IMG/VR virus record: IMGVR_UViG_3300032280_000659
Location: 1-64,000 of that record
From: a virus
Taxonomy: Duplodnaviria; Caudoviricetes
Length of the DNA stretch: 64,000 nucleotides
Reading direction: 5' to 3' (one strand)
In this document: positions 22,527 to 38,682 of the stretch, in pieces
Numbering within the stretch: the stretch's first letter is position 1
How the letters are laid out: each line of letters opens with the position of its first letter
The notes under the pieces: model-generated
Told to the model about the DNA's origin: nothing
The model's input: only the letters and a program-made list of their open reading frames with translations
The model's database searches: none
Position numbers and translations under genes: made by a program

Positions 22527-22612
22527 GACGTAAACCCTTACTACCAAAGGACTTACAGCGAAAACGCGCCCGCTTTTTTGACGTAAGTGCTTATGTACCA
22601 ACGACTTACGTC
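22527..22612. repeat. Bipartite dyad element, copy 1
   Basis: TAAACCCTT-ACTACCA-AAGGACTTA / GC-rich linker / TAAGTGCTT-ATGTACC-AACGACTTA; dyads start 22531 and 22584. Confidence 0.9.
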
Positions 22613-22618
22613 GCATGA

Positions 22619-22633
22619 GCAAATATCATGCCA
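22619..22633 (-). promoter_or_regulatory. Sigma54-type -24/-12 site
   Basis: Reverse complement TGGCATGATATTTGC. Confidence 0.55.
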
Positions 22634-22728
22634 TAAAAAATATTTTTTCTCCCATATTTTTTTTTCTTGCCAATCAAGATACAGAATGTATAATGTCGAT
22701 ATAAAGAAAAAGAAAAGAGAGAACGAAA

Positions 22729-22962
22729 ATGAAGAACATGATTGTGCTGAATACGGTTGCTGAGTTGGTCGAATTGCTGAACAGCGGTTCATTGAATACG
22801 TTTGTGAACAATGTTGCTTTTGCTGGCGATCTGCTGGAAAAGGCTCGTATCAATGGACACAATCAAATTGCCATTGATGATGAATTGGGATTCATGGATG
22901 ATGGCGGTTGGATCGGTGTCGATGAAGTTGGATACGTTGTAGAAGAAATGTATCTTCCGTAG
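22729..22962 (+). CDS. Early acidic hypothetical protein
   Basis: Promoter 22667-22694 upstream. Confidence 0.6.
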   Translation: MKNMIVLNTVAELVELLNSGSLNTFVNNVAFAGDLLEKARINGHNQIAIDDELGFMDDGGWIGVDEVGYVVEEMYLP

Positions 22963-23047
22963 GAAAACCTAACCTTACGATATTGCAAGGTTGACGCTCT
23001 AAAACAATCTGATACAATCACAACACAAGAAAGAAAAGAGAAAAGCT

Positions 23048-23431
23048 ATGAAAACCAAGTATCCAATCATTGAAAATGCCAAGCGTCAAGCCCGTATGAT
23101 TTTCAAGGGTATCGCTGTCCCGATGCTCGTGGAAATTCCCGATGATAAGGTTGTGGAAGATGCCGATTACGTCTATGGCGTGAACGATCAGAAACGCTAC
23201 CTTGTGACCGAAAAGGTTATCAAGTTCAATCGTACCGCATTGAAGAATATCGGTAAGGCTCGCAAGGAAAAAGCCGATCCCCGCTATGTGGGGGGTGAGG
23301 ATACCATGATCGTTCCGGTAGGTAAGCCCGGTAGCCGTGAACGTGTGGAAGAATTGGCAAGGCAGTATGCAGCCATCGCAGCTTGTGGTGAAGAAATCAG
23401 TCCGTTCAGCTTCAAGGGAGAAGATGAATGA
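23048..23431 (+). CDS. Early hypothetical protein
   Basis: 127-aa ORF with promoter and purine-rich leader. Confidence 0.65.
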   Translation: MKTKYPIIENAKRQARMIFKGIAVPMLVEIPDDKVVEDADYVYGVNDQKRYLVTEKVIKFNRTALKNIGKARKEKADPRYVGGEDTMIVPVGKPGSRERVEELARQYAAIAACGEEISPFSFKGEDE

Positions 23432-23500
23432 ACGAATGTACACTAGTGTACGATGTTATACTAGAGACTGAACGTGTGTATAGGCGCAAACATAAAGCTT

Positions 23501-23586
23501 GACGTAAACCCTTGCTACCAAAGGACTTACGACGAGGGCGCGCCCGCATTTTTGACGTAAGTGCTTACACCACAACAACTTACGAC
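23501..23586. repeat. Bipartite dyad element, copy 2
   Basis: Dyads start 23505 and 23558. Confidence 0.9.
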
Positions 23587-23620
23587 ACGTTTCTGCTGAA
23601 TCTTACCTAGCTTAACAAGA

Positions 23621-23635
23621 GCAAATATCGTGCCA
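23621..23635 (-). promoter_or_regulatory. Sigma54-type -24/-12 site (perfect consensus)
   Basis: Reverse complement TGGCACGATATTTGC. Confidence 0.6.
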
Positions 23636-24752
23636 AAAAAGAAAAAGATTTTTCCTAATTTTTTTTTCTTGCAACGCCGATAAATATATGTAGAATAAGA
23701 GAAAGAAAGAAAGAGAGAATGAAAATGAGAAAGCCTCCAAAGATTGCGACTGTCAAGGGTAAGATTCAAGGCTATGCCTACAAGTGCGGTTTTACCTACC
23801 ATCCGAAAGAGGATGGGACTTTTGCTCTGTTCGACATTCACATGGGATACTACGTCTGCCGTGGTAGTCATGATCGGATTGTCCAGTTTGTGATGGATGA
23901 ACTGTGGGCAAAGTATTTTCGCTCACAATCGACCCCCGTATAAGAGGGGTTGACGGCGGCGGAAAAGTTTGGTATAATAGTCGAAAGAGAAAAAAATGCA
24001 AAAAATTATGGTTGGCGATGTGGTTCAAGTAGTCGATGGATATGGTAATGTCCAGCAAATTGTCGGAAAGAATATCAAGATTCAGCTTTCCGGCCGATTT
24101 GAAGGAGAATGGTATACGCTTGACCAGATCGTATCTCATGCCTATCTGAACAAAAAGAAAAGTAATTGACAGCACAAGAAAGAGAGAAAAGAATGTACGA
24201 AATTGGTGATTATGTGGTACTGAAAGAATTCGATAAACAGATTACTGGACAGATTGTTTCTTATCATTACGATGATGGAATTGTGTGGGTTGTGCGAACC
24301 GCAGGTGGTAATCTTTGGGATTGTGCAGATCACGAACTAGCTCCCGCAGTAGATGCCTACGGACATCCTTGGACTTATCGGCCCACGCATAATGATGGTT
24401 GATAATAACAGAACAAAAGAAAGAAAAAGAAAATGCACAGTTCAAAACAATACCCTTTGCACAATATTGGTGAAATTTGGTTGGTATGGTATATGCCAGA
24501 TTGGTATAATCGTGCGTACTATAATGGTAACACGCCAACCGTTCAAAATGCTCGTATCGAAATTTATCAAGGTACGGTAGTAAGTTCAAAATGGATCGAA
24601 GGTAACGATAGTAAAAAGCCTTATGGATGGCTGGTTGTGATTCAACTTGAAGATGGTTCGTATCGTTCGCTCTATGAGTGTAAGTGTCAGATGATTAGTT
24701 CGCCCAAAAATAAAACTTGGTCGCAGACTATCAAAGACGAATCAGTCGTTAG

Positions 24753-24796
24753 TCTCAGCTAACCCTACGGGTTTGGGTAGGTTGGGCATAGTCAGC
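24753..24796 (+). repeat. 44-bp polar motif, copy 1
   Basis: TCTCAGCTAACCCTACGGGTTTG-N13-TAGTCAGC. Confidence 0.75.
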
Positions 24797-25233
24797 GTAA
24801 TTCTAGGGTTCTTGACAAAACGATATCAATAGTAGATAATAGTGCAGAAAGGTGAGGTTTATGCTAGGGGATTTTATTATGGTGTGGGTATGGATGGGTG
24901 CTACTCTTTTAATTCTTAGCTTTGTCTATTTTCTCTCTATCGTAGGGGAAGTTTGGCAAAGGATAAATGAGTATGAGAATATGAAAGCTCGGGGTTATAC
25001 TCTTATGAAAAGTGATAAGGATGATGATTTTTGGGTAGGATACGGGGATTGACTACTTAAACCAAAATGGAGATACAGGGATGTATCGGTTTGATTTTAT
25101 CAGTGTGGCTTTTGGGTATATTGTTGGTATTATTCTGTATGCTAGTATGTCAAATATCATGTATATGGAGGAAAATGATGAAGATTAGTGATTATATTCT
25201 ATTAGGGGTGTGCTTTATTCTAGGTTGTGGCTT

Positions 25234-25319
25234 GACGTATCTCCTTCACCAGTAAGGACTTACGTCGAGACCGGCCGGCCCGCCGCGTCTTAAGTGCTTA
25301 TCTACCAACACTTTACGTC
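25234..25319. repeat. Bipartite dyad element, copy 3
   Basis: Dyads start 25238 and 25291. Confidence 0.85.
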
Positions 25320-25675
25320 AACTGCAAAATTTTTCATGTTTGGCATGGAATTATATTCTGGAATTTTCTAAGTTCCTGCTTGACACCGGCCGATGATAAG
25401 TGTATAATCGCAGCATCACAAGGAAACCCATAAGGAACAGGATCATGTCGAACGATTTTGATGATGTCAACCGGATTCTGATGGAAATGTCCGAGCAAAA
25501 CATTGTGGAGCCGATTGACGATCCAAGCGTGGAAGTCAATTTTTGGGATTGGGCCGAAGTTGTGGGTGCTATTGACGATTTTGTTCCAGAGGAGTATACT
25601 AATGCTTAGTGCAATTGCTTTTGTTGTGGGCTATGTTGGTTTGTTCTACATTACTACTATTGTGAGGGATTGATC

Positions 25676-25927
25676 ATGAGCTACGAATACGATGACGTTG
25701 AAGATTTTTACGGTGAGTGCATGGACACTGACCTTTCCGATTATGAGGTTGAGGATGATTCGTTTGATGATAGTATGGATGGTGATGCTGAATCTGCACT
25801 GGCTTCCGCTGGATGGGGAACCGACGAGGACTATGGTTACTATGGTGACGATGGAATAGAAGATTTTCACGCAGATGAGGCTGTCGGATTCGTTGATTAT
25901 AACGATGATGGCCCATATGATGATTGA
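25676..25927 (+). CDS. Extremely acidic small protein (DNA-mimic candidate)
   Basis: 32 D/E in 83 aa, no K or R; DGDAESALASAGWGTDEDY motif. Confidence 0.65.
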   Translation: MSYEYDDVEDFYGECMDTDLSDYEVEDDSFDDSMDGDAESALASAGWGTDEDYGYYGDDGIEDFHADEAVGFVDYNDDGPYDD

Positions 25928-25940
25928 CTAAGCCGCTCGC

Positions 25941-26024
25941 CATAAACCCTTTGTGTGTAAGCACTTAGGGCTGGCGGGGCGGGCCGAATTTACTCTAAGT
26001 CCTTATGCTGCAATACTTTACGTC
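25941..26024. repeat. Bipartite dyad element, copy 4
   Basis: Dyads start 25943 and 25996. Confidence 0.85.
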
Positions 26025-26574
26025 AACCTTACGATATTGCAAGGAAATTTTTCTGTTTGACAACTAAAGATTCGTATGCTAAAATGTCGATATAAGAGAT
26101 AGAGAAAGAGAGTGAATGATGAAAAGTGAAGAAGAAAAGCGTATCGAAGAATATAACCGATTTATGGATGAATGGGAAAAGCGTCCTAAGAATCGTGATT
26201 TGTATGGCAATAACTGCTATCGTCCCGATGAAGTGGCGTTGACTGACGAAGAGTACGAGATGTTTGGTTAGGAGTATAAAAAATGGATCCTCATTATGAA
26301 TTTTTGCTGAAAGTTATGTACCAAAAGCCTAAAAAGAAAAAGACTTCGCATGGTTCTGCTAGTCGTAATTACTATGGCGAATTGAAAAGGTTCAAAGGCT
26401 ATCGTGGCCCGTTGAAGAAAGAAGAAGAAAAGAAATGAAAACGAAAAAGAAAGAGTTGACAGCACATGAGAAAGCTGTTATACTCATGAATCGTGAGACT
26501 GATCGTGCAGTAAGTCGTGTGAAGATGTTGGAAAAGTTGTATCTTGAAACCGTGAAAGCAAAGGAAACTGTTAA

Positions 26575-26805
26575 ATGAAGTGCGTTGTTACACATACTGA
26601 TACTTTTGGTGGTGAAGCTAACTATAGTTGGGTGAATCGATACGAATTCATTCCCAAGAAGAATGCTTCCCAGCGTAGCGTTATTCGTAAGGCTAAGGCT
26701 TTGGTCGGTATGACAGCCGTCAAGTCTGAAACCTACGATTATGGTGATGGTTATACCGTTAAGCCACGCGGCTATGCTCAAATCATCTTTGTTGATTTTG
26801 AGTAA
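26575..26805 (+). CDS. Early hypothetical protein (DTFGGEANYSWV motif)
   Basis: ORF with RBS; motif seen in small phage proteins. Confidence 0.6.
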   Translation: MKCVVTHTDTFGGEANYSWVNRYEFIPKKNASQRSVIRKAKALVGMTAVKSETYDYGDGYTVKPRGYAQIIFVDFE

Positions 26806-26815
26806 ACTATCCCTC

Positions 26816-26900
26816 GTCGTAAACCCTTTGTGTTCAAGTACTTAGGGCCGACGGGGCGGGCCGACCGAGTCATAAGTCCTTATTCTGCAACACTTTACGC
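26816..26900. repeat. Bipartite dyad element, copy 5
   Basis: Dyads start 26820 and 26873. Confidence 0.85.
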
Positions 26901-26995
26901 CAATCCTTACAATTTCGTAAGATTCAAGTTTACCCCTTGCAATAGACGATAATAGATAGTAGAATACGATATAGAAGAAAGGCAAGGGTGAGAAC

Positions 26996-27259
26996 ATGAG
27001 TCCCGATGGAAGCTATAATGGTTATCAAAACTATCAAACATGGAATGTTTGCTTGTGGATTAGTAATGATGAAAATCTGTATAGTCTGGCAAAACAGTGT
27101 ACCTCTTACGAACATTTCAGAATTTTGATTCGTGAAATTTTTGAAGTGAGTCCTATCAGATTCGAAACGCCCGATTGTGTGGCCTGGAATGATAGTGGCA
27201 TCAACATGGCTGAAATGGTAGAGTATTGGGAAGAAAATTTTTCTAAAGTTACCGCTTGA
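26996..27259 (+). CDS. Conserved small phage protein (YNG..NY.TWNV.LWI.NDE family)
   Basis: Motif recurrent in aquatic phages. Confidence 0.65.
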   Translation: MSPDGSYNGYQNYQTWNVCLWISNDENLYSLAKQCTSYEHFRILIREIFEVSPIRFETPDCVAWNDSGINMAEMVEYWEENFSKVTA

Positions 27260-27329
27260 CAAATGACGATAAATAGTGTAGACTTGACGTATGGATGTTG
27301 TGATCGGTTTTCAATTTGAAAGGGTTTCT

Positions 27330-27734
27330 ATGAACGATGTGATTTTGTTTGGTTCGATTCTGTCGGCTGTTGCCGTTGCTGTTGTGGGTTTCGTCTTCTA
27401 TTCGGTCTATGGTGGATCTAAGGCTAGTTTGGCGAATGCTCAAGAGGGTCAGGTTTACAACTTTGTTTACGAACAGCCGTTGCACGGAACGCACGAGCGT
27501 TTTCTTGCTAAGGTGATCGGTAAGCAGACGTTGACTGCTGACCAGATTGCGAGACTGAATCGCAAGAGTCGGTATCGTATCAATGATCCTGAGTTCATCC
27601 GTACCAGTAATCTGGTAACGTGTCGAACTGCGGATGGTAAGGTGCGTAATTTCTATGCAGAGCGAGTGACCAAGTGCCGAAAGCCTCTCCTGGCCGGTGC
27701 TTTGTTCAAGAGCGGGTTTGCTAACCTGTTCTAA
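27330..27734 (+). CDS. Membrane-anchored hypothetical protein
   Basis: N-terminal TM helix; likely start MNDVILFG. Confidence 0.6.
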   Translation: MNDVILFGSILSAVAVAVVGFVFYSVYGGSKASLANAQEGQVYNFVYEQPLHGTHERFLAKVIGKQTLTADQIARLNRKSRYRINDPEFIRTSNLVTCRTADGKVRNFYAERVTKCRKPLLAGALFKSGFANLF

Positions 27735-27767
27735 AAACTAGCAGTCTCTGCCTACTAACTGACCAAC

Positions 27768-27852
27768 CCCTAACCCTTTGACACCAAAGGACTTAGGGCG
27801 AGGTCGGCCGCCCCGCTTCGTCGTAAGTCTTTATGCCCCAACACTTTACGAC
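27768..27852. repeat. Bipartite dyad element, copy 6
   Basis: Dyads start 27771 and 27824; -35 TTGACA at 27880. Confidence 0.85.
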
Positions 27853-27932
27853 AATCTTTTATTTTTCAAGTTTTTCCTCTTGACAGGCCGATAATAGTAG
27901 TGTAGAATACAGGGAATCAAAAGGAGAAAAAG

Positions 27933-28199
27933 ATGCTGTTTACGCCATATGCTTTGACGGATAAGGTTACTCGCAAGGTTAGTGATGAGGGTATGATCGA
28001 GTTTAGTGGGTTGTCTACTGGCGGTCGTCCTTTTTCCATAGTCACTCGACTTGACGATGCCCAGCGTTGGGTCAACGGAGAGTTGATTCAAGTTGCTTTC
28101 CCGTATCTCAATGCGGATGATCGTGAGATTCTCAAAACGGGAATTGATGCTCAGGAATGGGAAACTATGTTCGCAGGAACGCAAGAGGAGGATGAGTGA
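27933..28199 (+). CDS. Early hypothetical protein (GELIQ.AFP.L.ADDRE.LKTGI family)
   Basis: AGGAG RBS; promoter 27880-27908. Confidence 0.65.
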   Translation: MLFTPYALTDKVTRKVSDEGMIEFSGLSTGGRPFSIVTRLDDAQRWVNGELIQVAFPYLNADDREILKTGIDAQEWETMFAGTQEEDE

Positions 28200-28338
28200 T
28201 GAATACTGATACTTATATGGTGATGAAAGGCAACAAGGTTGTAGGCTATGTTCAAGCGTACAGTACCTATCATGCCTTGTGTCAGGCAGAGAAGTTGTAT
28301 GGGAAGAATTTGCTACTTGAGCGAATCTCCCAAGTTTG

Positions 28339-28382
28339 TCCTGCCTAATCCTACGGATTTGGGATAGGTGGGTATAGTCAGC
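28339..28382 (+). repeat. 44-bp polar motif, copy 2
   Basis: TCCTGCCTAATCCTACGGATTTG-N13-TAGTCAGC. Confidence 0.75.
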
Positions 28383-28657
28383 CAGTAGTCAGGGCTTGAC
28401 AAAGAGTCTTTAATAGAGTATATTGGGCAGAAAGGGAGAGAATTATGTTGACGAGTGATGAACGAGACGCTGTTTGTGATTGTGTGGCTGATTTTGCTAC
28501 TCGTTTGCTTACCGCTGCTACTATTGATGAGAAGTCTATGCACCAAGAACTAGATATTTTCTTTGAGTTTTTTTGTAAGGCTCTTGAGATTGCTGAAAGA
28601 GACGGGGCGGGTAAGTTCCGTGAGTCTATTGGGACTAGTAATAACTAAGGAGATATC

Positions 28658-28837
28658 ATGAGAATTTGTCCATGTGGGTCTGGCAAGAAAAGTTGGTGGG
28701 AAAGTGATGCTAGGGGGATTCCACTGGGTAGGGTTTGTTTGGAGTGTCTGGATAAAAAGTTGAGTAAGTATAGGCCAGAAGTGTTGACCAACTCAAATTA
28801 TGAGTGTGACGAGCCTATTGAGGCCGAAGACTACTGA
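28658..28837 (+). CDS. Small Zn-binding protein with SEC-C-like CPCGSGK motif
   Basis: Manual ORF MRICPCGSGKKSWW...CLEC...; AGGAG RBS. Confidence 0.65.
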   Translation: MRICPCGSGKKSWWESDARGIPLGRVCLECLDKKLSKYRPEVLTNSNYECDEPIEAEDY

Positions 28838-28922
28838 TCGTAAGTCCTTATCCTTAAACAACTTAGGGATAGGGCGGGCGGCCGAACTTGATGTAAGTGC
28901 TTGTGTATCATAGGGTTACGTC
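28838..28922. repeat. Bipartite dyad element, copy 7
   Basis: Dyads start 28841 and 28894. Confidence 0.85.
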
Positions 28923-28959
28923 AATACTAAAAAATTTTTGGAATTCCTATAGATAGCTC

Positions 28960-28988
28960 TTGACAAGTGACGATAATAGATGTATACT
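28960..28988 (+). promoter_or_regulatory. Strong sigma70-type promoter driving the ncRNA array
   Basis: TTGACA-N17-TATACT. Confidence 0.8.
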
Positions 28989-28996
28989 TAGCACAT

Positions 28997-29079
28997 AAGC
29001 AGATGAGGGCCGCTGGCAGAATGATATCAAAGTAGCCACGGTTAAATGGCTGTCGAGTATGGCTCAACCCTATCTGCTT
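28997..29079 (+). ncRNA. Array unit 1, structured RNA (83 nt)
   Basis: Ends pair AAGCAGAT(G)AGGG/CCCTATCTGCTT; internal GTAGCCA/TGGCTGT hairpin. Confidence 0.65.
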
Positions 29080-29093
29080 TACAATACAAAACT

Positions 29094-29229
29094 CGTGGGT
29101 CCATGCCTTGGACTAGGTTGGGTAACTCATTACGATAAGCATCGCATGTCGCGGCAGCGATGATGCTGACGGTGCCGGTTACGCACTGGATAGTAGTGCC
29201 AATCTATGGGGGATCGCGTCCTCACCACG
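29094..29229 (+). ncRNA. Array unit 2, pseudoknotted RNA family copy A (136 nt)
   Basis: CGTGG/CCACG closing stem; covaries with unit 4. Confidence 0.75.
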
Positions 29230-29237
29230 TTATAATA

Positions 29238-29341
29238 CAATGTGTAGGTTAAGCGTTAAGCAGCCAACGGTTGGCGGGAGTACTACCACAACCGTCCGTT
29301 AGACCAGCATAGGAAAGTGTGGGTAAAATCCCACCACATTG
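29238..29341 (+). ncRNA. Array unit 3, tRNA-like RNA (104 nt)
   Basis: CAATGTG/CACATTG stem abutting T-arm-like GTGGG-TAAAAT-CCCAC; ACGGTTG/CAACCGT arm. Confidence 0.6.
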
Positions 29342-29354
29342 ACAATACAAACAT

Positions 29355-29511
29355 CCGTGAGTCCGTGCCAAGGGACTAGATTGGGATAACCACTTCGATT
29401 ATAGATATACATACCGTGTTGATCACTGGTCAAAAACTGTATATCATTGCCTGTTGGGGTTATACAACGGGCTAGAAGTCCAATCTATGTGGGATTGCAT
29501 CCAGATCACGG
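29355..29511 (+). ncRNA. Array unit 4, pseudoknotted RNA family copy B (157 nt)
   Basis: CCGTGA/TCACGG closing stem; covaries with unit 2. Confidence 0.75.
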
Positions 29512-29519
29512 CCAATACA

Positions 29520-29596
29520 ATCATGCGGTGGAGAGATTTCCTTTACTATGCGTGGCCTAACAGCCTAGACGTTGCAACGCCGCATAGACGCATGAT
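29520..29596 (+). ncRNA. Array unit 5, structured RNA (77 nt)
   Basis: ATCATGCG/CGCATGAT closing stem; inner CTATGCG/CGCATAG with two small hairpins. Confidence 0.65.
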
Positions 29597-29603
29597 ACAA
29601 TAC

Positions 29604-29774
29604 AACCAGTAACCGTTACTAAGAGCCAGACCAGAGCGGGTCTTATGTGCTAGCAATGCCCGCTTTGCAGGGAGGTTTCCGTGGACGGTTTCCACTAGTG
29701 TTTACCTGGCCCAAGGGTTAAAAATATCGGGTATTAGTGGAGCATAGAACCGGATCGTCAATGGTTCGCTGGTT
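29604..29774 (+). ncRNA. Array unit 6, structured RNA (171 nt)
   Basis: AACCAGT-AACCGTT / AATGGTT-C-GCTGGTT closing stem; CAGAGCGGGT/GCCCGCTTTG and GTGGA/TCCAC hairpins. Confidence 0.65.
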
Positions 29775-29778
29775 ACAA

Positions 29779-29853
29779 ACAGGGGTCGGATAGAAACCTT
29801 AGATAAGGTAAAACCTTGAGGTTGGTTAATGCGTGATACCGGACATTATCTGT
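29779..29853 (+). ncRNA. Array unit 7, structured RNA (75 nt)
   Basis: ACAGG/TCTGT ends; AACCTTA..AGGT-AAA-ACCT..TGAGGTT hairpin. Confidence 0.5.
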
Positions 29854-29862
29854 AAAACTATC

Positions 29863-29937
29863 GCTGGATATAACTCAAATGGCAGAGTTCCACTCAGAGA
29901 TGAGAGGAGTTACAGGTTCAAATCCTGTTATCTGGTA
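29863..29937 (+). ncRNA. Array unit 8, tRNA mimic lacking an anticodon loop
   Basis: Acceptor GCTGGATA/TATCTGGT, D arm ACTC-AAATGGCA-GAGT, T arm ACAGG-TTCAAAT-CCTGT; anticodon arm TCC-A-CTCA-GAGA-TGAG-A-GGA. Confidence 0.75.
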
Positions 29938-30939
29938 AGTCGATCCATTAACAGCCGGTATATTAATACAAAGGAGAAAGATGATGTTAGTTACACAAGA
30001 GATGATTGTTGAAGCAAAACAACTTGCCAAAGATAATTACGCGGGTTGGGGTCAATATGTGGTAGAGTGCTATGAGGATAGTGAGTTGGCCGAAAGCCTT
30101 GAGAGTTTTGATACTCTAGAAGATTGGGTAGAAGTTAGGATTGCAGTGGCAGAAGTATATGCTGAGAGAGAGGCTTTCTATGAATAAAGAAGAATCAGAC
30201 AGAAATGCAGCGATAGTTTATGTTCTTAGGGTTCTTAAAAACCCAATGATGATCAGGAGTCCTGCTAAAAAAGACGCATTGACTTTAGCAGAGAAGTATG
30301 GTATAACGGTGACTGATTTGATTAATGAGTATGACGAGATAACAAAGAGAATATAATGAACTGGCATTATGGAAATCCTATTGTAAATGGAGAATATCTT
30401 TGCTGTATAAAGGGTTATCCTTCTCCTATTTCTTTTGATTGGTATGATGGCAAGTGGGGAAACTGGGATTGGATTGACGACAAGTTGAATCCTATTGACC
30501 AATCTCTAGTAGTGTGCTATATTGGTTTTGATGAGATTCCTATGCCGGAGAATTGGTAATGATCTATCTAAATATTAATGAGATTGAGCGTTTGGCCGAA
30601 ATTGTAGCTGAACTGGTTAAGTTGGACATGTGTGTGATTGCTGAGTTGAAGGGAACTAAGTGGAGTATTGAGGTAACCAAATAATGGAATGGATTAGTTT
30701 TTTTGACCGACAGCCTGAAGATGGACAGGGTATTTGGTATTATGGTGAACATATTGGCGTGTGGGCTGGAGAGTATTCTTATTCTCCGAACGACCCTTTT
30801 AGTCCTCATCTTATATTTTGTCATGAATCTCCCGGTCTGGTTGACCGAATGGACGCTCCTTGGTGGATGGTTGATGATGGGGTAATGAACAGGCCAATCA
30901 AACCAGCAAAAGATTATCCACCTGATTATCCTGGGAGTT

Positions 30940-31024: not shown

Positions 31025-31343
31025 TTAGCCATATTTTTTCAAGATTTCCTCTTGACTTGTCGATAATAGTAGTGTAAGATACTAGCAACACGAAAGGGAA
31101 AATGATGACTGTTGCTGAACTGATCGAAGAACTGAACAAGCTGCCCCAAGATATGCTCGTACTAGTGCCGGGTTATGAGGGTGGGTATGATAATATCGAA
31201 GTTCAGAGGAATGGGGCTGTTGTTCTGGACGATAATTGGGATGGACAAGAAAAGTTTTATTGGTATAATGGGCGACACGCAACGTACTACAAGGATATGG
31301 AAGGCGACGAGCCTACATCATGCGTTGTTATCGGGAGAGGAAA

Positions 31344-31853
31344 ATGAAAAGAGTAGAACTACACGCCGAAGTACGATTTCATCTGCTCAATGGGCAAAAC
31401 TATCGGAAGTGGCAAGTAAATATTATGCAAGGTAAGAAAAGGGTTGACCAATTTTATGTAGACCCTACAGAATACCAGTTGGAGATGCGTGGTTGTAAGC
31501 TGGTAAATAAGGTAGCTAGGGCGAAATGGGTCAATAAGAAACAGAAAAAGAATGTTAGTGGTTGGGTACAGTGTGAAGAAGTTATGCTTCGCAAGGATTT
31601 TTATCCTTCTTTGCCTATTGACAATCTTGAGAAGTTGTATTACAATCCGATAAAAGATATCCACTGGCGACGAGAGAGTGATGGTGGTGAATTTGTTTGG
31701 GATAATAGTGAGTATGATACCTTAGTTACCGATGGGCGACAGGTTCATATTCTGGAAGAACGAGACGGAAATTTTGACGGTATTTACGAAATAGACCCTA
31801 AGTATACAGAAAGTTTTGGAATTTATGATCAAAATCGAACTGAGCGTGCGTGA
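31344..31853 (+). CDS. Hypothetical phage protein
   Basis: Likely start MKRVELHAEVRFHL after GAGAGG RBS. Confidence 0.6.
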   Translation: MKRVELHAEVRFHLLNGQNYRKWQVNIMQGKKRVDQFYVDPTEYQLEMRGCKLVNKVARAKWVNKKQKKNVSGWVQCEEVMLRKDFYPSLPIDNLEKLYYNPIKDIHWRRESDGGEFVWDNSEYDTLVTDGRQVHILEERDGNFDGIYEIDPKYTESFGIYDQNRTERA

Positions 31854-32199
31854 GTCCCTGAACATGATTGCAAACGGTTGCAGTCTCGATATGTTCGACA
31901 AGATTGTGTGTGCATTGGAAGTGGCACTGGGTGTGAACCAGCGTCGTATGGTAACGATTACCGGAGGTCTGACTCTGGACAACCGTATTCATTCCATCAA
32001 GGCTATTCGACTCCACACTGGATGGGGTCTGAAAGAGGCCAAGGATTGGACTGACTATCTGGTTGGTGGCTGGCATTACGACAAGTTCGTTCCTGCCAAG
32101 TCCGGGGCCAAGCAGAGTATCACTCTGAAAACGCCCGAAGCGGCAGAGGCACTGCTGCGTGATCTGGTGGGTTTGGGTTGTGAGGGTTATCTCTCATGA
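31825..32199 (+). CDS. Ribosomal protein bL12 (L7/L12) C-terminal-domain-like protein
   Basis: RIHSIKAIRLHTGWGLKEAKDW...PEAAEALLRDL..LGC resembles the bL12 CTD motif K..VIK.VR..TGLGLKEAK. Confidence 0.65.
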   Translation: MIKIELSVRESLNMIANGCSLDMFDKIVCALEVALGVNQRRMVTITGGLTLDNRIHSIKAIRLHTGWGLKEAKDWTDYLVGGWHYDKFVPAKSGAKQSITLKTPEAAEALLRDLVGLGCEGYLS

Positions 32200-32283
32200 C
32201 CTAAAGCCTTGTCCCTAAAGAACTTAGGGCGAGGCTGGGCCGCCAAATTTGATGTAAGTCTTTATCTGTAAACAACTTAGGAC
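32199..32283. repeat. Bipartite dyad element, copy 9
   Basis: Dyads start 32202 and 32255; -35 at 32321. Confidence 0.85.
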
Positions 32284-32487
32284 AAAATCAAAAATTTTTG
32301 AGGCTCACTCAAGTTCCTGCTTGACAATGACGATACTATACTGTAGAATGAGAGTATCACAAGTCAAGACCCCGCGACGATGCACAACATAAGAAACCAT
32401 CACGACGGACTTGACAAGTGAGTATTAGTATCGTATACTGATACTGTCCGATTGAGTTAGTTTTACAATTACTTTGGAGGTTTTACT

Positions 32488-32748
32488 ATGAAGGCTTTTA
32501 GTTTCAATGTGACGATTGCTTCGGATGTTCTTGATACGGATGTGGTGGAAGATACGCTGCGTCAGGCTCTTGTCGATGGTCTGCCGAGCGAGACTCTTGC
32601 TCTTGTCAAGGCCGATGGTGTGAAGGAGTATAGTGAGCAGGGTTGGAAGGTTGCTCGTAACCGTAAGTTCGGTATCGGTGTCAAGGAGGCCGGTGACGGC
32701 CACAAGGCAACGAAGTCTAGCAAAGCAACAGAGGAAGCGGTTGCGTGA
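32488..32748 (+). CDS. Hypothetical protein
   Basis: GGAGG RBS; 86 aa. Confidence 0.65.
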   Translation: MKAFSFNVTIASDVLDTDVVEDTLRQALVDGLPSETLALVKADGVKEYSEQGWKVARNRKFGIGVKEAGDGHKATKSSKATEEAVA

Positions 32749-32814
32749 TAGACTCTAAGGAGTTATAATGACTGCGAGCCTCCACGGGACGCCGTGGGGG
32801 CTTGCGGTATTGAC

Positions 32815-32886
32815 GGCCCCATAGTTAAATGGATATAATAAGTGACTTCTAATCTCTAGTTGCAGGTTCGATTCCTGCTGGGGCTA
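32815..32886 (+). tRNA. tRNA-Arg(UCU)
   Basis: GGCCCCA/TGGGGCT acceptor, loop CTTCTAA, T loop TTCGATT. Confidence 0.85.
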
Positions 32887-32891
32887 TTGTT

Positions 32892-32965
32892 GGGGGTGTA
32901 GATCAATTGGTTAGATCGCTAGCTTGTCACGCTAGAGGTTGCGGGTTCGAGTCCCGTCACTCTCG
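32892..32965 (+). tRNA. tRNA-Asp(GUC)
   Basis: CTAGC-TTGTCAC-GCTAG anticodon arm; canonical T arm. Confidence 0.9.
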
Positions 32966-32968
32966 TTT

Positions 32969-33054
32969 GTTGTAAACCCTTACTACATAAGCACTTAGAG
33001 CAAATGCGGCGGGCCGGCCGCGTCGTAAGTCCTTATCTAGCAACAACTTGCATC
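32969..33054. repeat. Bipartite dyad element, copy 10
   Basis: Dyads start 32973 and 33026; -35 at 33081. Confidence 0.85.
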
Positions 33055-33130
33055 AAGAATAATTTTTTAGAGTTTTTCGCTTGACTATGCCGATACCATA
33101 GTGTAGAATCGGTAGACACAGGAGAAGAAC

Positions 33131-33835
33131 ATGAAAACTGCTGATGGTAATGATAAGTTGGGTAAGGGTTGCATTGTGGTATCGCGTCCAGTGGGTGATA
33201 CTTGTCCGCCAGACTGCGACTATCTTGGCAACGGTTGCTATGCCGAAGCTACTGAAAACCAGTATAAAAATGCTCGTACTGCTGGTTTTGCTAATGTCGT
33301 GACCGAGAAGAATAAAATCCGTGCCATGATTCTGGATGCAAAGCGTCGTGAGAAGTCTATTCGTTGGCATGAACGTGGCGACTGGTTTCTCAATGGACAA
33401 CTTGACCTAGACTATGTTGCTAATGTAACGTGGGCTTGTGAGAGTATTCTTGCCGATGGTGATACGTTGCCCGATATGTGGTTTTATACTCATATCTACG
33501 ATGCTCGGCTTGTGAGTCTGGAAAAGTATATGAATGTATATGCTAGTGTGCATGATGATAATGATATGGGCGAAGCACTATCACAGGGTTTCAAGCTGTT
33601 TGCATGGTGTGACAGCGATATGAAGATTGCACCCAAGCGACCCAAGAGCAAAGCAAAGGCAGAAGCATGGCGACAAGCACTACCGAAGCTGGTGGTTCTC
33701 AATGCTACAAAGTTTGTAGTGTGTCCGGAAATCCGTCGTGGTCGTTCGGAAATCACTTGCACTGGTACTAAAGATAGTATATCATGTGACTTGTGTGTTC
33801 GTGGTTTGGCTAATGTCTTGTTTCCAGCCCATTGA
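33131..33835 (+). CDS. Gp88-like Cys-cluster protein (radical-SAM-related fold, inferred)
   Basis: GDTCPPDC...CYA; IRWHERGDW; WFYTH; C-terminal CPE...C...C..C. Confidence 0.6.
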   Translation: MKTADGNDKLGKGCIVVSRPVGDTCPPDCDYLGNGCYAEATENQYKNARTAGFANVVTEKNKIRAMILDAKRREKSIRWHERGDWFLNGQLDLDYVANVTWACESILADGDTLPDMWFYTHIYDARLVSLEKYMNVYASVHDDNDMGEALSQGFKLFAWCDSDMKIAPKRPKSKAKAEAWRQALPKLVVLNATKFVVCPEIRRGRSEITCTGTKDSISCDLCVRGLANVLFPAH

Positions 33836-33846
33836 AAGGAATAAAA

Positions 33847-34416
33847 ATGAGCTACATTGGATTGTATGATGATGCAGGAAGTAAGAATGCTTTCTATATT
33901 ATCAAAGATAAAAAGATTGGTCGTAAACGGGTGGGCTTCAAAGAGTTTGAGAATGAGCAAGAGGCTAAGTTTGCCCATCGGGTTCAGTCTCATTTGGCAC
34001 AGTTTGATTTAGCCCCTATGGTATATGGGGATGTTGGTATGATTCGTAGGCATGATGGTGAGTTGACTGCTCATGGTTATTTGACCGAAGTGGCTCGACC
34101 TATGCCGGAATGTCATGATGATGAATATTGTGATGGTGAATGTTTTGAGAGTAGTTGTAAGAATGGTATTTCTATCATGGGAATAGTATCTGATTTAGAT
34201 GAGCATGGTTTATCATACAATGACGCTCATAGAGGAAACTTTGGTTATGTTCGACGCAAAGGATCATGGGTTCCGGTTGTGATCGACCTTGGTATTGAGA
34301 GTTTTACTGATTGGGATGAAGATATTTATGGACAGTTTGATTATAATGATGATTGTAATGATGATTATAATGGATGTAATTGTGTTCACTGCCAAAAATT
34401 TAGAGATAGGGGATAA
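33847..34416 (+). CDS. Protein kinase-like protein
   Basis: GFKEF; LAPMVYG; catalytic-loop-like DAHRGNFG; VIDLG. Confidence 0.65.
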   Translation: MSYIGLYDDAGSKNAFYIIKDKKIGRKRVGFKEFENEQEAKFAHRVQSHLAQFDLAPMVYGDVGMIRRHDGELTAHGYLTEVARPMPECHDDEYCDGECFESSCKNGISIMGIVSDLDEHGLSYNDAHRGNFGYVRRKGSWVPVVIDLGIESFTDWDEDIYGQFDYNDDCNDDYNGCNCVHCQKFRDRG

Positions 34417-34817
34417 TCATGGCAAAGTATTATATCAAATGTGGGACACTAGAACTAATTTATTCCTGCAACAAATGTCCAAGGGATGCTGCGATGGATG
34501 CTATATGGGAAACAAATGAAAATGATACACTAGATGAACACTTCTATATAGATGAGCGTGGGTATAGAGACTATGTTACTGCTGATGGACATACTTGTGT
34601 ATTAAATACTGGTCATATTCTCATAGACGCAGGATGGAGTATTGAATAATGTGGATTATTATTGACGAGAAAAAGGTAAGACATTTGTGGGAATGTTCAG
34701 AATGTAATAGGCAAGCATATGTAGAGCCTTGGTACTATTCAGAGATGGGTACTCCATCGTGTGAAATTTGTGAAAGAGAGATGGAGTATATCAACACACA
34801 AATAGATATAGAGAGTT

Positions 34818-34903
34818 GACGTAAACCCTTGCTACCATTGCACTTATGGCAAGCGGGGCCGCCCAACTTTGACGTAAGTCCTTAATCCACAAAGCTTTAG
34901 AGC
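34818..34903. repeat. Bipartite dyad element, copy 11
   Basis: Dyads start 34822 and 34875. Confidence 0.85.
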
Positions 34904-35401
34904 AAATCCAAAAATCTTCTAAAGTTTCTACGCTGGATTGGTCGATAATAAGGATATGAGAACGACAAGAGAATCAACAAGGGGTGAGAGAATGATCCAG
35001 TGGGTTGGAATTGTGATTACGATTTTGGGTCTGGCTTATACGGGAATCAAAGATTATCAAAAAGGTGATATTAAATTCCCTCCAATCCCACAGAAACCGG
35101 CCTTGACAAAGGTGGTTTATCCGGTACAATATTGTCTGATGGCTTACGATCCTAATGTTGACAAGGTTTTTTACTTACACGAAAATGGACAATGGCATGA
35201 TTACGCTCCAGAACAACGACGATATTCGACCACGCCGCAACCATATCAAAATCAAGGTCAAGAAACCGTGGGAAATTCCTACAGGACACAAGGAGCATCG
35301 GTATACCGTTATGGACAATCGCCCCAAGCGTCAGCGAACACGATCCGCTGAAAAGCGTAGGGCTTGTCAAGATGATGACTATTGACTATAATAGTTTGAT
35401 T

Positions 35402-35474
35402 GCCGATGTAACTCAGTTGGTAGAGTGTTAGTTTTGTAAACTAAATGTCGCCGGATCGTTCCCGGCCATCGGCT
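35402..35474 (+). tRNA. tRNA-Thr(UGU), atypical T loop
   Basis: TTAGT-TTTGTAA-ACTAA; T loop ATCGTTC. Confidence 0.85.
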
Positions 35475-35475
35475 C

Positions 35476-35546
35476 TCCGGGATAGTGTAACGGTAGCACC
35501 AGAGATTTTGGTTCTCTTTGTCTGGGTTCGAATCCTAGTCCCGGAA
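35476..35546 (+). tRNA. tRNA-Gln(UUG)
   Basis: AGAGA-TTTTGGT-TCTCT; canonical T arm. Confidence 0.9.
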
Positions 35547-35554
35547 TTAGATAT

Positions 35555-35626
35555 TGCCCGATAGCACAACGGTAGTGCGGCAAACTGTTAATTTGTAGGT
35601 TCTAGGTTCGAATCCTAGTCGGGCAG
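35555..35626 (+). tRNA. tRNA-Asn(GUU)
   Basis: GCAAA-CTGTTAA-TTTGT. Confidence 0.9.
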
Positions 35627-35629
35627 TTT

Positions 35630-35716
35630 GGAATCTTGGCCGAGTGGTTTAAGGCAGCGGTTTACTAAACCGCCGAGGGTTAAAATCCTCCGTGGGTTCG
35701 AATCCCTCAGATTCCG
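35630..35716 (+). tRNA. tRNA-Ser(ACU), A34 anticodon
   Basis: GCGGT-TTACTAA-ACCGC; long variable arm; G1/G2/A3 and G73 serine identity. Confidence 0.8.
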
Positions 35717-35766
35717 CTAAAGAAAGGTCTTGACAACAGTCGATACTTACTGTAGAATACGAACAC

Positions 35767-35840
35767 GGGGCGTTGCAGCCGGTAGTTGCAATCACTCTTA
35801 TAAGGTGACCATAAGGTAGGTTCGACTCCTACACGCCCTA
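35767..35840 (+). tRNA. tRNA-Ile(UAU)
   Basis: TCACT-CTTATAA-GGTGA; own promoter at ~35730-35758. Confidence 0.75.
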
Positions 35841-35871
35841 TTCGGAGGCTGATGTTTGGGTTACGATGGCT

Positions 35872-35943
35872 GGCCCTATAGTCTAACGGCTAGGACGACA
35901 GCCTTTCACGCTGTAGATTTGAGTTCGATTCTCAATAGGGTCA
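35872..35943 (+). tRNA. tRNA-Glu(UUC)
   Basis: ACAGC-CTTTCAC-GCTGT. Confidence 0.85.
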
Positions 35944-36401
35944 TTTAATAATGTTTCATATTAGACATGATGTTGGCGATATGGTGTGGGTAGAAACTAC
36001 AGAGTATTCTGCTAGTAGAGCAAGAATTACCGGCACTCATACTGACGGGTACTATGTTAATTTCATAGATAAAACATCTGAACAAGAATCTTGTCACAAC
36101 TATCCTGTTATGAGTCGAAAGGTTAAGCCTATCGATTACATAGGACTAGAAAAATAAAATTTCTCAACTCTGACCACTTGACAGACCGATGATAGTATGG
36201 TAAGCTGTTGGCACACACAAGGAAACTAAAATGAAGAATCTACGCATCTATGATATTGTAACTGAAGATGGTAAAACTCTTGCCGATATTCAACTTGCCA
36301 TGCAAGAAGATTTTGACTGGGTTGATATTTTTGATAAGTTATACGATATGACTAGTGAGAATGTTGAGAGTTATTCTTACGAAGAAGTTAAGTAATAAGG
36401 C

Positions 36402-36474
36402 GGGCCTTTAGCTCAATTGGCAGAGCAAGGAGCTTTTAACTCTTAGGTTCAGGGTTCGAGTCCCTGAGGGCCCA
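36402..36474 (+). tRNA. tRNA-Lys(UUU)
   Basis: AGGAG-CTTTTAA-CTCTT; canonical arms. Confidence 0.9.
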
Positions 36475-36525
36475 CTTGACAATGTTGGTTGTTGGTGTAG
36501 AATAGAGGCATGAAAGGGATTTACT

Positions 36526-36699
36526 ATGCGTTATGAAGATTACTATGATGGATACAACTATAACTACGATGATCTCTTAGAGAATACTGAGGATCTCGGT
36601 TTAGATGAAGAACCTTGGATGCAGGATGCAGAAGATGACGAGGTTCCATCTTATGGTAAGAATTATTATTCAGATACCATTGAAGAAGATGACGATTAA
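36526..36699 (+). CDS. Highly acidic Tyr-rich small protein (57 aa)
   Basis: Manual ORF MRYEDYYDGYNYNYDDLLENTEDLGLDEE...EEDDD; promoter at ~36476-36503. Confidence 0.6.
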   Translation: MRYEDYYDGYNYNYDDLLENTEDLGLDEEPWMQDAEDDEVPSYGKNYYSDTIEEDDD

Positions 36700-36704
36700 T
36701 TATT

Positions 36705-36791
36705 GTGGATGCTTCTAGGTGGGCCTAGACAAAATTATCTGGAATTATTTCCTATCATATGTAGAAGTACGTTCGAATCGTACCATCCACT
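36705..36791 (+). ncRNA. tRNA-like RNA without a canonical anticodon arm
   Basis: GTGGATG/CATCCAC acceptor, perfect T arm GTACG-TTCGAAT-CGTAC, 6-bp TCTAGG/CCTAGA D-position hairpin, AU-rich middle. Confidence 0.65.
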
Positions 36792-36794
36792 TTT

Positions 36795-37286
36795 ATGTTT
36801 ACCATTGATAGCCACAGAAAAACTAATGATGGTAAAGTGATTCAGGGTTCTTCTCATACCTCTATTATTCTGAATCATCAGTATAGGAATAAAATTATTA
36901 TGGAGGCAGTAAAGGAGCTGCGTAGCCATAATTTTGATAGCATTGCTTGTTGTGGTACTAGTGGACTAATGGTTGTTCCACAGATAGCCGAGATACTAGA
37001 TAAGCATATTGTCGTGATTCGTAAACCAAGTGATAAACGTTATTCAATTTTTGATATAGAAGGAGTAGCACCTTATCATTATATTATTGTTGATGATCTT
37101 ACTTGTTCAGGAACCACTATAAAACTAATTCAGAATACTCTACATAATGAATGTCCACGCGCTATATGCGTAGGAGCCTACTTCTACTTACCGGATGAGT
37201 GCGCTTATTCTGGTAAAGAAGGTCATGAGCTTTTTCAAAAGGACTTCGGCTTCCCTGCTCTAAACTCCTTTCCACAAAGGACTTAG
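36795..37286 (+). CDS. Type I phosphoribosyltransferase-like protein
   Basis: PRPP-binding loop YIIVDDLTCSGTT; GTSG and IRK motifs. Confidence 0.8.
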   Translation: MFTIDSHRKTNDGKVIQGSSHTSIILNHQYRNKIIMEAVKELRSHNFDSIACCGTSGLMVVPQIAEILDKHIVVIRKPSDKRYSIFDIEGVAPYHYIIVDDLTCSGTTIKLIQNTLHNECPRAICVGAYFYLPDECAYSGKEGHELFQKDFGFPALNSFPQRT

Positions 37287-37342
37287 GGCAAGGCCGCCCG
37301 GCCCCGGTCGCCGTAAGTCCTTGTCTGACAACCACTTGCGTC
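37257..37342. repeat. Bipartite dyad element, copy 12
   Basis: Dyads start 37261 and 37314; -35 at 37369; first dyad overlaps the PRTase 3' end. Confidence 0.85.
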
Positions 37343-37440
37343 ACGAAATTTTTTCTCAAAGTTTCCGCTTGACAGTGACGATAACATAGTGTAGAATCAG
37401 TGAAGTAGAACGATTGAACAGCAACACGAAAGGGATGATT

Positions 37441-38391
37441 ATGGCTCATGCAGTTGAACAGATGATGTTTGTTGGTGCGACCCCGTGGCACGGTCTGGGG
37501 AACCAACTCGACGAGGCTCCAACGGTTTCGGAGGCGATTACTGCCGCCGGTTTGGATTGGGAAGTTGGCTTGAAGGATCTGGTCACGGTGGACGGCCAGC
37601 CCGTTCCGGCCCGTGCGACGTTCCGCAAGACTGACGATAGCATCTTGGGCGTTGTCGGCCCCCGCTACACCCCGCTGCAAAACAGCGAGGCGTTCGACTG
37701 GTTCCAGCCGTTTCTCGACGCTGGCGAGTGCAACCTGCACACTGCGGGTTCTTTGCACAGCGGTCAGAAGGTCTGGGTGCTTGCCCAGTTGAACCGCAGC
37801 AATAGCGAGATCGTGAAGGGTGACGAGGTTGGGAAGTTCATTCTTCTCAGCAACTCGCACGACGGCACGACCGCTATCCGTGTCGGCTACACGCCGATCC
37901 GGGTTGTGTGTGCAAACACGATGGCAATGGCCCACAGTAAGGGTAGCGGTTCCAAGCTGATTCGGATTCGACACACACGTTCCAGCAAGAGCAATCTGGA
38001 AAACGTGAGGGATATCATGGACAACATCAACATGGAGTTTGAAGCGACTGCGGAGCAGTTCAAATTCCTTGCGTCCAAGAACTTCAATCAGGCTGACGTT
38101 CGCCGGTATGTCAAGGTGATGCTTGATATCGACGGCACGCCTGACGATCAGATCAAGACTCGTACCAGAAATATCATGGACGAGATTCTGGCTCTGGTCG
38201 AAGGCCCGAAGCAGAGTGCGACGGGGGTTCGTGGAACTTGGTGGGCCGCGTACAACGGCTACAACGAGTACCTGAATTACAACAAGGGTCGCACCGAAGA
38301 TAATCGGCTCGACTCTCTCTGGTTCGGCCAGAATGGGGTTGACAACTCCAAGGCTCTGACCACTGCCTTGGATTTCGCCAACGCACTGTAG
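37441..38391 (+). CDS. DUF932 family phage/plasmid protein
   Basis: MAHAVE.M..VG.TPWHGLG...AGLDWEV...Y.PLQN...TAGSL..G..VW...LLSNSHDG...PIRVVCANT...GTWWAAYN. Confidence 0.85.
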   Translation: MAHAVEQMMFVGATPWHGLGNQLDEAPTVSEAITAAGLDWEVGLKDLVTVDGQPVPARATFRKTDDSILGVVGPRYTPLQNSEAFDWFQPFLDAGECNLHTAGSLHSGQKVWVLAQLNRSNSEIVKGDEVGKFILLSNSHDGTTAIRVGYTPIRVVCANTMAMAHSKGSGSKLIRIRHTRSSKSNLENVRDIMDNINMEFEATAEQFKFLASKNFNQADVRRYVKVMLDIDGTPDDQIKTRTRNIMDEILALVEGPKQSATGVRGTWWAAYNGYNEYLNYNKGRTEDNRLDSLWFGQNGVDNSKALTTALDFANAL

Positions 38392-38412
38392 TTTTCCTTT
38401 CGTGGCGTGGCA

Positions 38413-38456
38413 GGGGAGGCCGTCCCTCAGTGGTGGGGGGCGGCTTCCTCTATTTC
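38413..38456 (+). terminator. Strong GC hairpin/terminator after the DUF932 gene
   Basis: GGGGAGGCCGTCCC...GGGGCGGCTTCCTC followed by TATTTC. Confidence 0.6.
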
Positions 38457-38472
38457 TAAACAACAGGAGATT

Positions 38473-38557
38473 GCGTAAGTGCTTGCTACATAAGGACTTA
38501 CGTCAAGCCCGGCCCGGCAATTTAGTCCTAAGTCTAATGAAATCAATGACTTACATC
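38473..38557. repeat. Bipartite dyad element, copy 13 (single dyads also at ~38608-38638 and ~38760-38792)
   Basis: Dyads start 38476 and 38529; contains AATCAATGACTTA. Confidence 0.85.
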
Positions 38558-38682
38558 AAATAGCCTATAGACAACCATGCGAACTGCCGATATACTATAG
38601 GGTGGTGGTCGTAAGTCTAATGCTGCCAATAGGTTAGAGAAAAATAGTAAAAGTAATTTATAATTGTAATAGGGTAAATTTG

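Follow-up and report, generated by a model that had tools for sequence, protein, structure and literature searches.

The window analyzed here comprises the first 64 kb (64,000 nucleotides) of the IMG/VR virus record IMGVR_UViG_3300032280_000659, a giant, uncultured phage from fresh water (Caudoviricetes) whose record is 114,486 bp long and an estimated 78% complete. Its complete close relatives have genomes of 200 to 231 kb, and two of these end in terminal repeats. Cultured phages include no close relative: megablast and blastn searches against 50,697 phage records returned no match, and the best matches of the large terminase, in Bacillus siphoviruses, are 26% identical. Late genes, among them those for the large terminase and a tail fibre, occupy the minus strand up to 21.1 kb, where a plus-strand early region begins. 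The latter carries about 20 near-consensus sigma70-type promoters, many open reading frames (ORFs) of 50 to 150 amino acids without a Pfam family, nine tRNAs, and a noncoding RNA array. Between 22.5 and 38.6 kb lie 13 full copies of an 86-bp double-dyad element, all in the same orientation, and our analysis indicates that this regulatory repeat is real, widespread, and hitherto undescribed.

Each element consists of a flank, box L1, a 7-nucleotide spacer (N7), box R1, a 20-nucleotide G+C core, a second flank, box L2, another N7 spacer, and box R2. The four boxes, of 9 bp each (about 15 bp including flanks), make up two dyads whose spacing is exactly five helical turns. The sequence reads T(T/C)G(A/T)CG, L1 (TAAACCCTT-like), N7, R1 (AAGGACTTA), CGTC or GGGC, and C-R-A-G, and continues with about 14 nucleotides of G+C, a T-rich triplet, GACG, L2 (TAAGTCCTT), N7, R2 (AACGACTTA or AACACTTTA), and CGTCAA. 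Conservation is highest in the inner boxes, R1 and L2, and the outer boxes have a weaker consensus of their own. A preliminary description of the region had reported two dyads around a GC-rich core and 13 first-dyad starts, all of which are correct. Its pattern TAA-N4-TT-N7-AA-N4-TTA occurs 20 times in the window against 0.70 expected, a number that no shuffled sequence attained; 19 of these matches fall inside the elements, and the remaining one, at 15388, is unrelated. Seven of the 26 dyads depart from the strict pattern by one to three bases, examples being copy 3 in its L1 (TATCTCCTT) and copy 13 in its second dyad. The second dyad had been placed 53 bp after the first, and this period is exact in every copy, since the 13 copies align over 106 columns without a single gap. 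When a sequence-only model was run on the entire record, it retrieved precisely 13 full copies and one weak half copy. Scores in the plus orientation (64 to 80 bits) are about 20 bits better than in the reverse one (41 to 55 bits). The solitary half copy, at 38606 to 38639 on the plus strand, resembles dyad 2 and scores 7.5 bits (E value of 0.46). Beyond dyad 2, most copies have an A/T tract after about 10 nucleotides, with the T run lying 10 to 15 nucleotides on; an A(n)T(n) tract is centered 24 to 28 bp past the dyad-2 center in 8 of 13 copies. This tract keeps to the element even when the promoter is 41 or 64 nucleotides away (copies 3, 7, and 9).

The elements start at, or a few nucleotides from, upstream stop codons or the end of a tRNA. 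Most upstream genes end in or just ahead of the 5' flank (the TGA in tTGAcg), and two upstream ORFs extend into dyad 1. All copies are on the plus strand, and gaps are counted in nucleotides from the end of R2 to the next −35. Copy 1 (22527 to 22612) is followed by a −35 at 22667 (gap of 58) and copy 2 (23501 to 23586) by one at 23669 (gap of 86). Copy 3 (25234 to 25319) has a degenerate L1, with ORF 25067-25255 ending within its dyad 1 and the −35 at 25380 (gap of 64). Copies 4 (25939 to 26024; −35 at 26057, gap of 36) and 5 (26816 to 26901; −35 at 26937, gap of 39) are each separated from their promoter by an extra mini-dyad, CCTTAC-N6-GCAAGG at 26027 to 26044 and CTTAC-N6-GTAAG at 26906 to 26921, which reuse the box ends in reversed order. 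Copy 6 (27767 to 27852) precedes a −35 at 27880 (gap of 31), and copy 7 (28837 to 28922), which adjoins the upstream stop codon, precedes the promoter of the noncoding RNA array (−35 at 28960, gap of 41). The upstream TGA lies within the 5' flank of copies 8 (30940 to 31025; −35 TTGACT at 31052, gap of 30), 9 (32198 to 32283; −35 at 32321, gap of 41), and 11 (34818 to 34903; weak promoter about 33 nucleotides downstream). Copy 10 (32969 to 33054; −35 at 33081, gap of 30) begins 3 nucleotides past tRNA-Asp, and ORF 36795-37286 ends within dyad 1 of copy 12 (37257 to 37342; −35 at 37369, gap of 30). Copy 13 (38472 to 38557) has the most degenerate dyad 2 of all, and the promoter TAGACA-17-TATACT begins 14 nucleotides downstream. 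In copy 9, dyad 1 (CCTAAAGCCTTGTCCCTAAAGAACTTAGGGCGAGG; 32198 to 32240) is identical, N7 included, in about ten orthologues (most of those listed), whose core and dyad-2 spacer are randomized; this points to an additional constraint that may act on copy 9 alone.

The proposal that the elements precede sigma70-type promoters holds for each of the 13 copies, as do the distances of 55 to 56 bp (four copies) and 64 to 66 bp (three copies) from the dyad-2 start to the −35; the corresponding gaps from R2 are 30 to 31 and 39 to 41 nucleotides. The one-turn phasing read into these values is not significant over all 13 copies (hand-computed Rayleigh test with a 10.5-bp period, p of about 0.3). The gap values are moreover not independent, because the L058 orthologues keep identical gaps to the promoter. 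The element's link with the next promoter is no closer than its link with the upstream unit's end, which favors a boundary or insulator role over classical activation. A suggested role in DNA entry finds no support, as the cluster lies mid-genome in the complete relatives with terminal repeats. Canonical terminators are enriched neither in the early region nor in a comparison stretch at 40 to 60 kb, and no terminator-like match falls at the elements. A reading of the element as an intrinsic terminator is likewise not supported, since its core folds like shuffled sequence and the T run does not follow dyad 2 immediately. Canonical terminators are few in the window; one, a clean CCCCC stem with a T run at 21504 to 21521 on the minus strand, faces the late genes at the divergent junction.

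Other features accompany the early promoters. Beyond the two hexamers, these promoters have in common a YAAAGTTYC-like motif that closely precedes the −35, and their spacers contain a CGATA box (25364-25409, 27240-27285, 27864-27909, 28944-28989, 32305-32350, 35714-35759, and 37353-37398). A second co-oriented repeat family, of about 49 nucleotides and ending in TAGTCAGC, occurs at 24748-24796, 28334-28382, 38678-38726, 38936-38984, 41531-41579, and 41889-41937; two of its copies lie directly upstream of strong promoters (24812 and 28396), and the family takes over at the point where the double-dyad elements end. The G+C content is 41 to 46% in the element-bearing region (22000 to 38000) versus 30 to 34% elsewhere in the window, and the elements make up just about 7% of that region. 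An RNA family search returned solely tRNAs and one unrelated small RNA match. Rfam gives a DUF3800-VIII RNA match at 49391 to 49474, just over the gathering score, and a low-scoring tRNA-like match at 29864 to 29936 that was not called by ARAGORN.

The element is by no means confined to this record. A 19-base version of the motif matches at least 119 IMG/VR loci, mostly several times per locus, and three complete relatives (200 to 231 kb) carry about 17 to 21 copies each, in one cluster of 16 to 19 kb and in a single orientation. Among 185,579 species genomes, multicopy matches are found solely on small or misbinned phage-like contigs of freshwater metagenome-assembled genomes (MAGs) assigned to many phyla, and single matches are at chance level; the motif is thus a phage feature and not a host repeat. 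Eight such contigs with several copies (L126, L147, L150, L158, L159, L170, L172, and L178) are binned as Gammaproteobacteria, Alphaproteobacteria, Methylococcaceae, or "bacterium," one of them being 141 kb long, and are probably misbinned phage contigs. Two distant phages bearing a DUF932 gene (L235 and L236) have no analogous repeat, and a literature search for the box sequences yielded unrelated primer matches and nothing else.

The box sequences differ between two subclades. In subclade B (L217, L220, L221, L222, and L230), whose DUF932 protein is 81% identical to one encoded here, the copies score only 17 to 38 bits with the sequence model, and their alignment, of 28 copies, shows identical, gap-free geometry. 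In all 28, R1 has changed from AAG[G/C]ACTTA to AAGA[C/G]TTTA and L2 from TAAGT[C/G]CTT to TAAA[C/G]TCTT (TAAGTSCTT to TAAASTCTT). Both inner boxes are therefore altered symmetrically in every copy, and R2 is unchanged as xACTTA. Such a concerted switch calls for a symmetric trans-acting reader with changed specificity or for homogenization among the copies under a symmetric constraint. The joint change in all sister-subclade copies suggests that the binder is probably phage encoded and argues against a conserved host factor.

Structural tests on three alignments, of 13 (this record), 73 (subclade A), and 27 (subclade B) distinct copies, bear on whether the element acts as DNA or as RNA. Gap-free alignments extend over about 90 nucleotides in 13, 79, and 28 copies, and among more than 120 copies none carries an indel. 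From one orthologue to the next, the core and the N7 of dyad 2 are almost random in sequence, yet their length is constant and they remain G+C rich. Spacers randomized in sequence and fixed in length, together with the exact five-turn period, are the signature of contacts on a rigid duplex. Neither hairpin model that we tried, with two hairpins or with nested stems, shows covariation in any alignment, and we rejected both for this reason. Two hairpins would pair 71.0%, 70.5%, and 67.1% of cells, versus 70.6%, 71.1%, and 66.4% in shuffles, and the nested model (L1:R2 outer, R1:L2 inner) pairs less than 499 to 500 of 500 shuffles in all three alignments. Nested pairing of 70 to 74% stems from the consensus alone, without compensation, and most copies have their mismatches at the same internal positions. 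With RNAalifold there is essentially no consensus fold (−2.8 and −0.03 kcal/mol), individual copies adopt different folds, and the G+C cores fold no better than shuffles (z of −1.6 to +1.9), which also disposes of the core as a terminator hairpin. Taken with the joint inner-box switch, the missing covariation and the absence of indels support the earlier suggestion that the dyads are probably recognized as double-stranded DNA.

Comparison with relatives, which share blocks at 77 to 92% identity, shows that several indels and replacements stop at an element's 5' edge. They include a 56-amino-acid ORF just upstream of copy 11 that is missing in four relatives, the tRNA-Asp that precedes copy 10, and an insertion of 643 bp in G003, where the gene order also differs. 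The promoter module that follows copy 4 recurs ahead of different genes. In L002, two tRNAs are replaced by unrelated DNA, and copy 10 is chimeric, because homology to it begins at R1. The idea of cassette-type exchange at the elements thus gains partial support, from indels and replacements abutting them, altered gene order, and one chimeric copy. Searches of this record and of four further genomes with the element, complete or nearly so, found neither a tyrosine nor a serine recombinase (PF00589 is missing from G000, G001, G003, G005, and G006), and this record has no Y1 transposase, which makes homologous exchange the simpler reading.

A 67-amino-acid protein encoded on the plus strand at 13526 to 13729 had been put forward as a possible binder. 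Its model is a three-helix bundle (predicted local distance difference test score of 81) with a basic RGRP tail that corresponds to a subthreshold AT-hook. Fold searches gave weak matches, mostly to DNA-binding domains of the helix-turn-helix type, the best being the N-terminal domain of a small terminase (probability of 0.97, E value of 0.6). In three relatives (G001, G003, and G005), the element cluster is headed by the orthologous gene, the first one on the plus strand, which in G005 lies about 130 bp ahead of the first element. Here about 7.4 kb of minus-strand genes (13733 to 21133) separate the gene from the cluster, a layout that suggests an insertion or rearrangement in this genome. 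The protein does resemble a small helix-turn-helix protein whose tail is AT-hook-like. It was not found in G002, a record estimated to be 95% complete, and the putative recognition helix, helix 3 (MVRRQRRKL), is identical in both subclades and hence cannot explain the box switch. The protein could read only invariant features, such as the TAA/TTA frame or the A/T tract, and not the switched positions; we regard it as a lead, not a finding.

Our preferred reading, to which we give somewhat less than an even chance, is that the element serves as a docking platform on duplex DNA for a sequence-specific multimeric protein, insulating or regulating the tandem early units, and as a crossover point too. 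The protein, probably phage encoded, would dock on the four boxes around the fixed-length G+C-rich spacer. The element lies at the 3' boundary of each early transcription unit, right ahead of the next sigma70-type promoter. There, the bound complex would most likely insulate or regulate the tandem units, possibly by blocking read-through from upstream promoters, by modulating the next promoter, or by both. Since about 13 to 21 such modules are repeated in one orientation, element and promoter together could also provide crossover points for shuffling early gene blocks, in the manner of the promoter-early stem-loop (PeSL) cassettes discussed below. Several observations weigh against this docking model. 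No Pfam DNA-binding domain was detected in about 30 early ORFs tested, no binder was identified, and helix 3 of the one candidate did not follow the box switch. The −35 distances span 14 to 86 nucleotides without significant phasing, which is unusual for an activator, and roughly a dozen promoters of equal strength in the region have no element. R1 and L2 are complementary at their central variable position less often than by chance (in 4 of 27 copies of subclade B, where by our own count about 12 are expected, and in 22 of 73 of subclade A), a pattern that a simple homodimer model leaves unexplained. The statistics are also not independent, since copies are related within and between genomes. 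Finally, single copies fold more stably than shuffles, and R1:L2 complementarity persists through the subclade switch, which gives a reading as RNA or as single-stranded DNA some probability.

These last two points speak for the strongest rival, which we nevertheless hold to be unlikely: that the element acts as RNA at the 3' ends of early transcripts, as a processing, termination, or stabilizing signal read by a sequence-specific factor, much like the early RNase III sites of T7 or the PeSL stem-loop. Single copies reach z values of −1.5 to −4.4 as nested stems or three hairpins, and the inner R1:L2 helix is 78 to 80% complementary in both subclades, with a compensatory change at one pair (C:G to U:A). 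Moreover, the element is always on the transcribed strand, directly after stop codons or a tRNA, in an early region without canonical terminators, where something else may end transcripts. However, canonical terminators are not enriched elsewhere either, and the upstream ORF is translated through dyad 1 in two copies. In addition, no covariation beyond column composition appears in the three data sets, the nested model being anticovarying; the copies differ in fold, the G+C core is unstructured, the lengths of the presumed loops are constant in more than 120 copies, and the inner pair 31:72 shows, by eye, G·U and A·C mismatches about equally often. Less probable still is a role as a binding array through which a host protein of the architectural or topological kind (IHF, HU, Fis, gyrase, or similar) manages bending or supercoiling between heavily transcribed tandem units, comparable to the repetitive extragenic palindromic (REP) sequences and bacterial interspersed mosaic elements (BIMEs). 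It would fit the A/T and G+C modules that alternate about every 26.5 bp by eye (dyad, core, dyad, A/T tract), the roughly 20 strong tandem promoters within 17 kb, and the failure to find a phage binder. The resemblance of the half-sites to the IHF consensus, noted in the preliminary description, does not hold up: although copy 13 does contain AATCAATGACTTA, the full consensus WATCAANNNNTTR occurs 14 times in the window versus 8.8 expected and matches 1 of the 26 dyads, copy 13 being the sole element with a full match. We rejected the IHF site on this ground and because HU/IHF-family genes were not found in five related records. Furthermore, no bacterial genome of the 185,579 species has many copies of the motif, and the close phages with the 81% identical DUF932 protein differ in their inner boxes, which would require two hosts with different specificities.

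Two further explanations invoke mobile DNA. A site for site-specific recombination, similar to attC, would consist of two simple sites with inverted 9-bp arms and a 7-bp spacer, on which a dedicated recombinase moves cassettes. The four boxes (L1 forward, R1 reverse, core, L2 forward, R2 reverse), the single element per cassette in one orientation, the cassette indels and reordering, and the chimeric copy, whose breakpoint falls in dyad 1, all agree with it. We nonetheless judge it improbable, in view of the missing tyrosine and serine recombinases in five records and the missing Y1 transposase in this one. Furthermore, the folded-strand complementarity that attC needs is not kept by compensation, most indel boundaries lie at the outer edge and not at one fixed internal point, and each cassette has its own promoter. 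The terminal inverted symmetry and the many copies might, alternatively, point to the spread of a selfish miniature inverted-repeat element through the region. The copies, however, are strictly intergenic, in one orientation and one cluster, and orthologous across genomes, with neither target duplications nor a transposase, so that this explanation, the least credible of all, is close to refuted.

Carrying the docking-platform reading one step further, we tentatively suggest, with less confidence than we place in the platform itself, that the element is the operator of a previously undescribed phage-encoded four-site insulator or regulator that defines self-promoted early cassettes. Its specificity would have coevolved with the roughly 20 sites in each genome, so that at least two specificities would now exist in the sister subclades. 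If true, phage genomes would harbor a boundary-element system of a new kind. The early regions of large phages are mosaics of uncharacterized host-takeover genes, and to our knowledge, the organization, insulation, and reshuffling of such regions are known only for T4-type PeSLs. The element could represent a second, mechanistically different solution, in which a rigid protein-type operator replaces the terminator hairpin. More than 100 uncultured lake-phage contigs conserve the element, and the natural specificity switch could reveal the binder; if found, this protein would supply two mutually orthogonal DNA-binding specificities along with a portable boundary element. For the annotation of early gene cassettes in phage genomes from metagenomes, the elements also offer precise landmarks.

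Among systems described so far, several share part of this architecture. REP and BIME sequences of enterobacteria and the early RNase III sites of T7 act as, or fold into, hairpins. The element resembles them as a repeated imperfect palindrome at gene 3' ends in transcribed regions, and differs from them in lacking structural covariation and in its absence from the bacterial chromosomes of the 185,579 species genomes. Where REPs and BIMEs are present in hundreds of host-chromosome copies folding as hairpins, its multicopy matches are restricted to phage-like MAG contigs. T7-type RNase III sites have two stacked stems around an internal loop and are cleaved by RNase III; in the present element, nested pairing amounts to 70 to 74%, from the consensus and without compensation. 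Cooperative operator pairs for repressor tetramers, such as those for lambda CI or LacI-type looping, are dyad-symmetric sites. Like them, the element has dyads on the same helix face, integral turns apart, with unconserved, fixed-length spacers. Unlike them, it is present in about 13 to 21 copies per genome, upstream of promoters at variable distance instead of overlapping them, and its half-sites are unusually long, each dyad combining a strong and a weak box. With integron attC and tyrosine-recombinase core sites it shares two inverted box pairs around a variable center, 9-bp arms, a 7-bp spacer, and one same-orientation site per cassette; it differs by its constant length, its promoter-bearing cassettes, and the lack of compensated complementarity and of any integrase or canonical recombinase found here.

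The closest known system is that of the PeSL cassettes of T4-type phages. These contain a stable stem-loop with a G run and a C run, shown to terminate transcription; they are repeated in one orientation, flank small ORFans, and contain recombination breakpoints inside the module (PMC2839356, PMC4122927). Our module is likewise an intergenic composite in a plastic early region, running from stop codon through conserved element, A/T tract, and sigma70-type promoter to Shine-Dalgarno sequence and start codon. It has many same-orientation repeats flanking small ORFs without a Pfam family, with apparent breakpoints within the module and with indels, replacements, and reordering in relatives; the promoter is strong, with the A/T tract upstream and the Shine-Dalgarno sequence downstream. 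Recombination between copies may shuffle the flanked genes here too, to judge by one chimeric copy, block boundaries at element edges, and gene-order changes. Unlike in PeSLs, a stable G/C-rich terminating stem-loop appears to be lacking, as there is neither a consensus or covarying structure nor a terminator-like match at the elements, and the phage is not a close T4 relative. In its place stand four sequence boxes that switch between subclades, held at an exact 53-bp period around a G+C spacer of fixed length.

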